A stretch of 64,000 bases of DNA from a virus (IMGVR_UViG_3300032219_002227:32001-96000), one strand, 5' to 3'; counted from the stretch's first letter, positions 38,889 through 42,601 are shown. Program-made: numbers and translations. Notes: generated from the letters alone by a model not told the origin.

Positions 38889-39458
38889 ATGAAATTAGTA
38901 GAGAAACCATGGCGGTACGGAACGTACCTCGCCTATGAGGAGGTAGAACCAGAATTTTTTCCCACCGAGAAGGGGGTAAGGGTGTTACCTGCTCCTTTTT
39001 ATTATGAGAAGAAATTGTATTTTGAATTAAAGAAAATTTACACCCCGGGGGAGAAAAAAACATTTCCTGATGGGGGATATGAAGTAGTTGATATGAGTGG
39101 GGGTATTCGTTCCTATAACTTGGACCAAGTGATTATTCACCCCAATGTTTTGCAGCATAAGAAAATGGTTGAGAAGATAACTCGCAAATCAGAAAAGCAA
39201 GCTAAGCAACGTGAACGAACACTCAAAAAGATTGCCCGTGAAAACAAACCCAAACATGGAAGGAAAGGACGTCCAGCGCTTGATCCTGCTGTGAAGGCTC
39301 ACAGAGAAAATATTAAAACAGCAACGCAGGAGCGTTCTGGAGGCAAGCGGGGACGTCCACCTCTAAGTGATGAAGCTAAAGCAGCTAAAGCCGCTAGTGA
39401 TATAGCTCGGAAGACACGTTCAGGAGGAAAGCGAGGTAGACCTAGGGTGGCCAAGTAA
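38889..39458 (+). CDS. AT-hook DNA-binding protein
   Basis: GRKGRP, GKRGRP, GKRGRP in basic C-terminal half. Confidence 0.7.
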   Translation: MKLVEKPWRYGTYLAYEEVEPEFFPTEKGVRVLPAPFYYEKKLYFELKKIYTPGEKKTFPDGGYEVVDMSGGIRSYNLDQVIIHPNVLQHKKMVEKITRKSEKQAKQRERTLKKIARENKPKHGRKGRPALDPAVKAHRENIKTATQERSGGKRGRPPLSDEAKAAKAASDIARKTRSGGKRGRPRVAK

Positions 39459-39944: not shown

Positions 39945-40208
39945 ATGAAAGTAAAAGATTTAGTTAAGTATTTAGGAGAATTTGATCCGGAAACAGAGGT
40001 ATTAGGTATGTGTACTGATCCAACAAACTTCACCTACAAATCACCTATTCAATCAATTGAATTTGATAGTCCATTTGATGATAGTGGTTATAGTAGTGTT
40101 GATGGATCAGAATTAGATTGGGATAAACATTATTATGAAGACGAAGATATGGATGAACCAAAATATATTGGTCCAAAAGTTGTTTTATTAAATTTAGGTG
40201 ATGTGTAA
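39945..40208 (+). CDS. Acidic early protein (MKVKDL..L..FDPE family), related to 42114..42305
   Basis: ATG at 39945 after promoter 39903. Confidence 0.7.
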   Translation: MKVKDLVKYLGEFDPETEVLGMCTDPTNFTYKSPIQSIEFDSPFDDSGYSSVDGSELDWDKHYYEDEDMDEPKYIGPKVVLLNLGDV

Positions 40209-40555: not shown

Positions 40556-40795
40556 ATGAACAACACAGAAACAAAATCAAAAGGTCGTCCAGTAGTAGAA
40601 AATTCAGCTCGTCAAATGCGCCTCGCGGCACGCGCCACAAGGGTAGCCGCCGGGGGTGAAGTTAAAAGGGGCCGTCCATCAAACCCAGAATCAGCTCGCC
40701 AACAACGCCTAGCTGTTAGAGCAAGTGGGGTTACGGTTAAAAGAGGTCGCCCGAAAATGGAAAAGCAAGAAGTAGAAGCTACTGTTGAGGCCTGA
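40556..40795 (+). CDS. Small tandem AT-hook protein
   Basis: KGRPVVENSARQMRLA / KRGRPSNPESARQQRLA / KRGRP. Confidence 0.75.
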   Translation: MNNTETKSKGRPVVENSARQMRLAARATRVAAGGEVKRGRPSNPESARQQRLAVRASGVTVKRGRPKMEKQEVEATVEA

Positions 40796-40849
40796 AAAAT
40801 AAGGTAGGTGGTCAAAAATGATCACCTACCTTTATTTAAATTAAAATGT

Positions 40850-41076: not shown

Positions 41077-41481
41077 ATGGCAACAAGATCTTACATCGGA
41101 ATTAGAAACACAGACGCCTCAGTTGATTACATTTATTGTCACTTTGATGGTTATCCAGAACACAACGGTAAAATTCTTAGGGAACATTACTCAAATATTA
41201 ATCGAGTAAACGAGTTATTGAAATTAGGTGATTTGAGTGTGTTGGGACAATTTATTGGTGAGAAAATGGATTTTGATAAGCGAGTTAGAGATACTTGTCT
41301 GGCGTATGGTAGAGATAGAGGTGAATCGAATGTAGATAAAAAGAATGGTGATTATGATAAGTTGATTACCGATCAAAGTGTTGATTATGTGTATGTGTTT
41401 GATGGTGATTATTGGGAGTGCCACAGCACATGGAACCCAGAACTAATTAATTTATACAATATGGAACAACAAAATAGCTAG
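41077..41481 (+). CDS. Conserved phage protein (MATRS.I...YCH.DGYP type)
   Basis: YIYCHFDGYP, GDLS.LG, AYGRDRGE, YVYVF. Confidence 0.75.
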   Translation: MATRSYIGIRNTDASVDYIYCHFDGYPEHNGKILREHYSNINRVNELLKLGDLSVLGQFIGEKMDFDKRVRDTCLAYGRDRGESNVDKKNGDYDKLITDQSVDYVYVFDGDYWECHSTWNPELINLYNMEQQNS

Positions 41482-41507: not shown

Positions 41508-41536
41508 GCCTGGGGTTTCTACCCCGGGCTTTTTTT
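41508..41536 (+). terminator. Rho-independent terminator
   Basis: GCCTGGGGT-TTCT-ACCCCGGGC + T7. Confidence 0.85.
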
Positions 41537-41582
41537 CATTATGGCCAAAATTAATTGTTTATATTTATATAAATTAAATTAT

Positions 41583-41774
41583 ATGAGAATATTAGATGGT
41601 AAGGAAATATTAGATTTTGAAGGTATATTTATTGAGTTTAATGATGATGGAGTTGGAATGTTTTTGAGTGAGGATAAAAATTTAGATTTTGGTGAGTATG
41701 AGACTTGTGGTGATAGTGGAGAAGTTGAATTAGAGGGAGGAAGAATAATAAAGTGGGGAATATTATATGTTTAA
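41583..41774 (+). CDS. Acidic 63-aa early protein; only one C in CDS
   Basis: ATG after promoter 41544; no Ala/Pro/His/Gln, one Thr. Confidence 0.7.
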   Translation: MRILDGKEILDFEGIFIEFNDDGVGMFLSEDKNLDFGEYETCGDSGEVELEGGRIIKWGILYV

Positions 41775-41823
41775 TATTTGTTTTATTAGAATTAATTATG
41801 TATATTTATATAAATTAAAATGT

Positions 41824-42060
41824 ATGATTAAAAGTAATTATGATTTGGTTTTAGAAGTAATTAAGAATTATGAAAGTGAAAGAATATTAAATGATTTTAA
41901 GATTATTTTTATTGAGGGTGAGAATATAAGTAAAGAGGATTTTTGGAATTTTAATTATAAGTATATTGATGATATAAGTGAAGAATATTATATAAAATTA
42001 AATTGGAAGTATATTGAAAGTGAAGGTGATGAAAGTATATTTGATGGAGTTATGTTTTAA
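41824..42060 (+). CDS. Acidic 78-aa early protein; zero C in CDS
   Basis: ATG after TATATTTA at 41801; no Ala/Pro/His/Gln/Thr. Confidence 0.7.
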   Translation: MIKSNYDLVLEVIKNYESERILNDFKIIFIEGENISKEDFWNFNYKYIDDISEEYYIKLNWKYIESEGDESIFDGVMF

Positions 42061-42113
42061 ATTAAATTAAATTAGTCGAAATTAATTTATTATATTTATT
42101 AAAATTATAAGTT

Positions 42114-42305
42114 ATGAAGGTAAAAGAATTAATTAGTTTGTTAAGTGAAATGGATAGTGAATTGGATGTATTAGGTGAATTTGATAGTGATGGTGATGGG
42201 TTTATGATTAAGGTAGAAGTAGTAAATGTAGAGGAGGGGGATGGAATTGATGATGTTAATTATAATGATGATAGAAGGTATTGTATTATTAAATTAGATT
42301 GTTAA
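42114..42305 (+). CDS. Acidic 63-aa early protein (MKVKEL family); zero C in CDS
   Basis: Promoter 42075; N-terminus similar to 39945..40208. Confidence 0.75.
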   Translation: MKVKELISLLSEMDSELDVLGEFDSDGDGFMIKVEVVNVEEGDGIDDVNYNDDRRYCIIKLDC

Positions 42306-42379
42306 ATTAAAATTAATTAAAAAATATATAGGTGGTCAGAAATGATCACCTACATTTATTAAAATTAAAAATTAAAATT

Positions 42380-42544
42380 ATGGAATTGAATTTAAAGGAT
42401 GTAAATGATCTGTATTATGTAGTAGGTAGAATGATGCAGATAAATAAGAAGGATAGGATGTTTATTAGTGATGAGGAATTAGAAGCATTAAGTGAAAAAC
42501 TGGTTGAATTAATTGAGGTAAAATATGAGGAAGAAAATTATTAA
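42380..42544 (+). CDS. Acidic 54-aa early protein; four C in CDS
   Basis: ATG after hairpin-promoter 42335. Confidence 0.65.
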   Translation: MELNLKDVNDLYYVVGRMMQINKKDRMFISDEELEALSEKLVELIEVKYEEENY

Positions 42545-42601
42545 ATAAACATAGGTGGCCAGGAATGGTCACCTATATTCAACCTATAAAATTAAAACAA
42601 T

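Follow-up and report, generated by a model that had tools for sequence, protein, structure and literature searches.

Selection keeps cytosine out of an array of small gene cassettes in an uncultured 173-kb phage

An uncultured phage, known from a 173,246-bp IMG/VR virus record, carries a block of small genes whose coding strand contains almost no cytosine. The block is an array of mobile cassettes whose proteins have been recoded to do without C, and comparisons among related phages indicate that the exclusion of C is kept by selection, not by C>T decay. The window analysed here is a stretch of 64,000 nt corresponding to bases 32001-96000 of the record, and coordinates refer to it unless another sequence is named.

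The block, its signals and its products

On the + strand, the cytosine-free block (41547-42336) comprises 311 A, 306 T, 171 G and two C in 790 nt, where about 109 C would be expected. The two C are found at 41704 and 42077, and the mean C content across the window is 12.8%. A recount reproduced every C count and position given in a first-pass annotation of this DNA, made from the sequence alone. That annotation had also proposed a genome-wide scan of C content, in which the block proved to hold the three longest C-free runs of the 173 kb (372, 259 and 157 nt, adjacent to one another), the fourth longest measuring 83 nt; similar blocks were found in relatives. No runs lacking G, A or T and comparable to the C-free ones were present anywhere in the 173-kb genome. 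The C fraction of the 235 ORFs is 0.132 ± 0.033, against 0, 0, 0.013 and 0.024 for the four genes of the block, the next lowest ORF being at 0.054. Since every gene in the genome lies on the + strand, it is the coding strand that lacks C, and the template has almost no G.

The genes themselves had been correctly described. The first, g1 (41583-41774, +), encodes an acidic protein of 63 aa without a Pfam or PHROG match and has one C, in an ACT threonine codon (41703-41705). The next two, g2 (41824-42060, +; 78 aa, a predicted compact helical domain) and g3 (42114-42305, +; 63 aa), have no C at all, and g4 (42380-42544, +; 54 aa), which belongs to the block-closing family, has four. The protein encoded by g3 is a rewriting, in 15 letters, of that of a paralogue at 39945-40208 (+), which contains 26 C and uses P, T and Q where g3 has S, G, D and M. 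The ordinary gene located just before the block (phrog_1987; 41077-41481, +; 47 C) was used as a synteny marker and as a substitution control. The frames of the block are open despite the stop-rich C-free alphabet: frames of at least 63 codons occurred in 1% of shuffles, the observed maximum being 102. C-free RNA is predicted to be weakly structured (-0.08 to -0.11 kcal/mol per nt versus -0.172 ± 0.036 for other small genes). When a trend in C with distance from the promoters was looked for, most units carried zero C.

Each of the three first genes is preceded by a putative promoter motif, AATTAAT-N4-TATATTTA, at 41549-41567 (g1), 41790-41808 (g2) and 42080-42098 (g3), all on the + strand. These are the only three copies in the 173 kb, and all are upstream of block genes. 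In this phage and its relatives, the motif is separated from the start codon by 15-25 nt, as read from the sequences, and 16 of the 17 copies in the C-free relatives sit in or at C-free blocks. Its TATATTTA box is similar to the Bacteroidota -7 element TAnnTTTG, a likeness that suggests use by the host polymerase. C42077, 3 nt upstream of the third copy, had been taken for a conserved promoter C, which did not stand: the copies of the relatives mostly read GTTAGAATTAAT, with T at that place, and GTC is found in few.

The left edge of the block is formed by a predicted intrinsic terminator (41508-41537, +; a 9-bp GC stem followed by seven T; -19 kcal/mol, z -4.06), and the C-free run begins 10 nt past it. 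Both elements of the earlier description, a start right after a strong terminator and a promoter core for each gene, were thus found (terminator 41508-41537; motifs at 41549, 41790 and 42080). Three copies of a predicted hairpin accompany the block. The first (40801-40832, +) has the core GGTGGTCA-AAAA-TGATCACC, a 14-bp stem (-21.6 kcal/mol, z -6.75) and is fused to a promoter-like motif; the second (42329-42352, +; -14.1 kcal/mol, z -4.56), with the sequence GGTGGTCA-GAAA-TGATCACC, closes the block; and the third (42551-42576, +; -17.4 kcal/mol, z -5.05) shows compensatory stem changes and a GGAA loop. The first C after the block lies inside the stem of the second copy, and normal C content returns after the third. 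A scan found four terminator-like sites in 2 kb, versus 0.3 expected. In relatives L005, L007 and L025, two hairpin copies flank the block and a T run follows the left one. The hairpin with its promoter-like box is a conserved, putative terminator/promoter element in its own right.

The stems of the three copies differ by compensatory T-A to C-G changes, and their loops are of the GNRA type (GAAA, GGAA) or AAAA. The idea that g4 gained its C after being isolated by the extra hairpin was dropped, since relative L029 has the same four-C g4 within its array. Just upstream of the block, two early proteins (38889-39458 and 40556-40795) contain repeated K/R-G-R-P (AT-hook-like) motifs and may be DNA-binding proteins for AT-rich DNA; the DNA of both genes is locally C- and G-rich.

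The products of the block use 15 amino acids, A, P, T, H and Q being dropped, and across phages they measure 50-125 residues. They are small and acidic, as had been remarked, Asp and Glu making up 24.5% of the residues in pooled C-free genes versus 11.5% in the genome. They evolve fast, non-synonymous codon changes far outnumbering synonymous ones, a ratio that is inflated because the C-free code offers fewer synonymous sites. Scans of the block proteins against Pfam and PHROG gave no usable match. The predicted structure of g2 is compact and helical (pLDDT 91.6, pTM 0.80); the model matched nothing in the PDB at E <= 0.001 and, in BFVD, an uncharacterised homologue only, with no functional match. 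The model of g3 (pLDDT 58.5) was too uncertain and was set aside. The first-pass proposal that these are first-wave anti-defence proteins thus found no support from family matches (Pfam, PHROG) or from the fold of g2 (PDB, BFVD), and calling them 'anti-defence' is a guess.

Mobile cassettes and selection against cytosine

Relatives were identified through the neighbouring gene 41077-41481 and, for L025 and L029, by searching for the bracketing hairpins. In L005/L006, C-free stretches of 1665 and 293 nt are separated by one C (1 in 1959 nt) and hold six C-free ORFs. L007 has no C in 1475 nt (five ORFs), L016 none in 828 nt (two ORFs), L025 none in 307 nt, exactly between two hairpins, and L029 one in 925 nt, starting 4 nt after a hairpin. 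Pooled with the block described above, this amounts to 4 C in about 6.3 kb. Homologues without any A, P, T, H or Q were also found in protein databases, accounting for 21 of 46 for g2, 16 of 23 for g3 and 17 of 53 for g4; the remaining ones contain 1-6 such residues (most 1-4), versus about 17 usually. Because independent metagenome assemblies, as well as hundreds of metagenome proteins, carry the same feature, a one-off assembly or sequencing artefact is excluded. Megablast against GenBank phages gave no match.

The gene content of the blocks turns over. At least ten unrelated small-protein families occur in combinations that vary among this phage, L005, L007, L016, L025 and L029. The g4 family, C-free or C-poor in the relatives, is the only one always present and closes the block in every one of them. 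Close relatives L047 and L049 (genomes of 166 and 163 kb) possess g4, with 3-4 C, without g1-g3, and the latter are therefore inserted cassettes in the present phage. L019/L020 are C-poor, short of C-free. Among complete relatives, G007 has a single C-free run of 137 nt and G009 several of 124-167 nt, while G006 and G008 have no C-free run of at least 120 nt.

Some blocks show further peculiarities. The C-free block of L016 starts with 152 nt of pure A/T (L016:6295-6446), upstream of its first gene. In L049, the g4-family gene is duplicated in tandem (L049:6001-6389; 3 C in each copy), with a conserved hairpin between the copies. A hydrophobic mini-ORF of 32 codons lies within the C-free block of L005 (L005:8930-9030) behind its own dedicated promoter, and its single threonine codon (ACT) contributes the only C of the 1959-nt block.

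Comparison of orthologues indicated how C is kept out. Pairs of C-free orthologues diverge by 23-35% at the nucleotide level, and none of their 62, 43, 50 and 47 differences involves C. For the flanking genes compared between these genomes, C takes part in 39 of 80, 24 of 44 and 52 of 140 differences (35-55%); at a rate of 0.45, the probability of observing 0 of 62 is below 1e-15. Opposite a C of the homologue or paralogue, the C-free gene has T in 36 cases, G in 31 and A in 24. Recodings include TCA(Ser)>AGT(Ser), ACT(Thr)>AGT(Ser) and CCG(Pro)>AGT(Ser). The last, between g3 and its paralogue at 39945, is the contrast that had been cited against C>T decay, and it proved real on alignment. In the g3 family, the ancestral FDPE has become FDSE, FDGE or FNGE depending on the lineage.

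Codon usage was reshaped as well. Serine, always encoded by AGT, makes up 5.9% of the residues, where passive loss of C-containing codons would leave 3.0%. Across the C-free genes taken together, about 500 codons are of the NNY type and not one ends in C, versus 10-20% in ordinary genes. G-ending synonymous codons are 3-6 fold more frequent, GTG representing 21.5% of Val codons (versus 3.6%), TTG 23% of TTR (versus 9%) and AGG 37% of AGR (versus 8%). Overall, C falls to 0.3%, T rises from 30% to 39% and purines from about 55% to 61%; the rise of T in C-free genes, 6-9 points, takes up about half of the lost C share. The three residual coding C of the near-C-free blocks (ACT in g1, ACT in the L005 mini-ORF, GCT in L029) all occupy the second position of Thr or Ala codons. 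The earlier view that C>T decay alone cannot explain the block is thereby borne out: the homologue alignment that had been proposed as a check reveals compensating changes such as TCA>AGT, replacements are spread over T, G and A, and orthologue differences never involve C.

Host and guanine modification genes

The nearest cultured relative is Flavobacterium phage vB_FspM_immuto, with about 35% identity over a 1221-aa protein and a colinear layout. This relationship points to a Bacteroidota host; the 173-kb phage probably infects Flavobacteria and appears to rely on the host RNA polymerase. A tmRNA gene, whose tag peptide ends in ...YAVAA, adjoins a tRNA-Leu(TAA) gene in this genome (24545-24929 and 23806-23893).

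In immuto, dG is completely replaced by fdPreQ1 through DpdA3 (10.1101/2023.04.13.536721). A cluster located outside the window (G000:C1:5468-12239, G000 being the present phage) encodes homologues of QueD, DpdA3, QueC and FolE, together with a phosphoribosyltransferase, a GT2 glycosyltransferase and a dCTP-deaminase-like protein. The DpdA-like protein matches immuto DpdA with an E value of 1e-38 in a protein search, and is not detected by the PF01702 profile. QueE was not identified, and a 277-aa ORF of the cluster matched no Pfam family. To judge from these genes, modification of G is very probable in this phage. Unlike in immuto, QueF and DpdN are absent from G000, as they are from G006-G009, and the fdPreQ1 chemistry can therefore not be transferred to this phage, whose modified G is probably a different one. 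The resemblance to immuto extends to its syntenic region, which contains one strongly C-depleted gene (3 C per 300 nt). An association between DpdA and the blocks was considered and is not supported, the DpdA-positive relatives G006 and G008 being without C-free runs of at least 120 nt. The 58-bp repeat at the termini of the record results from assembly overlap and does not mark physical genome ends.

Possible reasons for excluding cytosine

We propose that the block is an array of mobile cassettes, probably immediate-early, each made of a dedicated host-type promoter and a small ORF, the array being insulated by terminator hairpins. Purifying selection acts against each C of the transcript, that is, each G of the template. 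At the very onset of infection, adding C opposite a template G would be a costly step for the host RNA polymerase, and the messages would have been rewritten to need ATP, GTP and UTP only. Three causes of such a cost can be envisaged. CTP could be the scarcest NTP in a slow-growing aquatic host, which is our first choice; a defence could poison or drain the CTP pool; or every G of the incoming DNA could be a 7-deazaguanine derivative. The immediate-early timing, elongation as the site of the cost and the choice among these causes are what we infer from the arrangement. That selection removes the CTP-addition step from immediate-early transcription is, in our estimate, somewhat less probable than its negation. 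The first-pass suggestion that the mRNAs could be made without CTP accordingly keeps its place as the leading class of explanation, as a proposal only.

Several features favour this reading. The near-total exclusion of C, including from synonymous sites, spacers and leaders, implies that even a lone first C is costly. Such a cost favours a step that operates nucleotide by nucleotide, either C addition opposite template G or an enzyme acting on single C, and speaks against explanations based on a threshold (Rho) or on motifs (restriction sites, motif-specific RNases). In extent, the block matches a transcription unit, an argument for the level of RNA or transcription over that of DNA. Where C is tolerated, the closing hairpin follows directly on the unit concerned, the last of the array (L029, with 14 C; g4 in the present phage); if CTP addition is what matters, this would be because nothing downstream is delayed there. 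Moreover, the presence of FolE, QueD, QueC and DpdA3-like genes, taken with dG replacement in immuto, means that the template of the block may be the only strand segment without modified bases.

Other observations count against it. A 7-substituted 7-deazaguanine hindered bacterial RNA polymerase in vitro at initiation and not at elongation (PMC4838386), which is unfavourable to a cost of CTP addition. The 3-6 fold rise of G-ending codons is not predicted by an economy of CTP. All other early genes contain C and would face this obstacle too, and the benefit must therefore be one of speed or priority, a weaker claim. The need is not general in the clade, given G006 and G008 without a long C-free run and L047 and L049 with a C-poor g4 only, and the patchy distribution of blocks among DpdA-positive relatives argues against an intrinsic requirement. 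A literature search disclosed no CTP-specific anti-phage defence. Prokaryotic viperins, which the first-pass annotation had invoked as a source of chain-terminating ddhCTP, are reported to be mostly promiscuous and to make ddhCTP, ddhUTP and ddhGTP (10.1101/2023.09.13.557418), so that dropping C alone would not confer immunity. This promiscuity, along with the apparent reliance of the phage on host RNA polymerase, weakens the viperin reading.

We considered the possibility that a C-free, G-enriched message evades Rho, allowing poorly translated first-wave transcripts to escape premature termination. Rho loads on nascent RNA at YC dinucleotides in C-rich, G-poor stretches and is described as reading up to six YC in series; its avoidance has been published as a driver of a pyrimidine depletion of coding strands, seen as a purine bias in genes of bacteria with runaway transcription (PMC13323073). 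As in that bias, selection on the coding strand lowers C relative to G here, synonymous sites included. A rule of 'C below G' would predict the enrichment in G-ending codons and fits the strong G>C skew of the early region as a whole (0.28-0.35); the last unit accepts C at its 3' end, where termination would be harmless; and the relatives that are C-poor and not C-free (L019/L020), like immuto gp143, suggest a graded pressure. Yet, if up to six YC are read, a few C per 1-2 kb should be neutral and accumulate, and only 4 C are present in about 6.3 kb of blocks; the roughly 500 synonymous NNY sites have none. The bias described in the literature is a graded one that reduces C and U alike, giving purine-rich coding strands, whereas here C alone is nearly gone, in one small regulon, U goes up, and purines reach only about 61%. 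Polarity also matters less with one promoter per gene. We regard Rho evasion as unlikely, although it is the rival to be taken most seriously.

A message without C would also be immune to an agent that acts on C in RNA, such as a host or phage endoribonuclease whose site includes C (a MazF-type ACA enzyme or a C-C cutter, for instance) or an enzyme that deaminates or modifies cytosine in RNA, and would outlast other messages. A cost per C agrees with the near-total exclusion, the only C of the transcription unit is held in a stable GNRA-capped stem, out of reach of single-strand-specific enzymes, and the low predicted structure of C-free RNA would fit as well. Against this, the literature search found no single-C-specific enzyme, none was identified in the phage, and motif-specific nucleases would deplete motifs and not each C. 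The latter argument also weakens the earlier appeal to MazF motifs and to restriction sites, which would explain the loss of motifs and not of every C at about 500 NNY sites. We consider a C-directed attack on RNA decidedly improbable.

Phages are known to avoid restriction sites and to express small acidic anti-restriction proteins first, such as Ocr of T7. The block could similarly be a restriction-proof or modification-independent leading segment, one strand of which lacks 7-deazaguanine. Palindromes containing G or C are impossible in it, as is any site that requires both G and C on one strand, a class that takes in almost every palindromic type II site and the majority of type I sites; its products are small and very acidic, like DNA-mimic anti-restriction proteins, and are encoded behind their own promoters; and modification of G by the phage is very probable. 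But it is a whole nucleotide that is avoided here, not motifs, and avoiding sites does not require the removal of every C. The proteins bear no likeness to Ocr or ArdA in sequence (Pfam, PHROG) or in fold, the g2 model being unlike known DNA mimics. A modified genome would already be resistant to restriction. The block is located mid-contig, the repeat at the contig ends being no mapped end, and its edges match transcription signals and no DNA-end feature. The earlier idea of a restriction-proof block meets a further difficulty, since a clean island of 0.8 kb cannot shield a 173-kb genome unless it is the first part to enter. An explanation at the DNA level thus has little chance of being right.

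Mutation alone, i.e. strand-specific C>U deamination of a heavily transcribed non-template strand with selection merely keeping frames open, would suit a block that coincides with a transcription unit, the share of lost C that went to T and the fact that T is the commonest replacement relative to the nearest C-containing orthologue (L019), but it is extremely improbable in view of the G and A replacements, the multi-step changes TCA>AGT and ACT>AGT, the excess of AGT serine, the gain of G-ending codons, the confinement of residual coding C to second positions, the absence of stops arisen from CAA, CAG or CGA and the ratio of C>T to T>C rates, above about 500, that it would require. The remaining odds belong to something not yet thought of.

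Whatever its cause, the architecture has a precedent in the promoter-early stem-loop (PeSL) cassettes of the T4-type phages RB49 and phi1 (Arbiol et al. 2010, PMC2839356). In both cases, the early region is hyperplastic and filled with small ORFans, each of which has a strong early promoter of host type upstream (recognized here from sequence). Stem-loops provide termination or insulation, the regulatory cassettes flanking the genes are almost identical, and closely related phages differ in gene content, as recombination between cassettes would produce. However, PeSL genes are of ordinary composition, their phages are of the T4 type whereas the present one is related to immuto, and the stem-loops found here are restricted to the edges of the array (40801, 42329 and 42551, fused to promoter-like motifs), with none between genes, since no G-C stem can form in a strand lacking C. 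Literature searches retrieved no account of naturally cytosine-free genes; the nearest findings were the layout of PeSL cassettes and the purine bias, which is graded.

G-less and C-less cassettes are familiar as laboratory templates for in vitro transcription. Like them, the block can be transcribed with three NTPs only. Unlike these engineered, non-coding constructs, it is natural, protein-coding, diverging and held by selection. We give a little under even chances to the view that some phages maintain a mobile pool of 'three-letter' immediate-early genes, whose messages are made and kept whatever befalls CTP or the C of RNA.

The blocks provide a data set of natural, evolving proteins made from three nucleotides and 15 amino acids, in which rewriting can be followed (T>S/M, P>G/S, Q>E/L). 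If the proposal is true, proteins in nature can change over to a 15-letter alphabet without losing the ability to fold, and C-free cassettes would be natural parts for CTP- and Rho-independent expression. Purging every C at the price of five amino acids would point to a bottleneck or an attack that is specific to one nucleotide, acts within the first minutes of infection and is missing from current models. There would then be a widespread and hitherto undescribed one-nucleotide barrier at the start of infection, whether it comes from a limited supply of CTP, from a defence directed at C or from the modified G of the phage itself.
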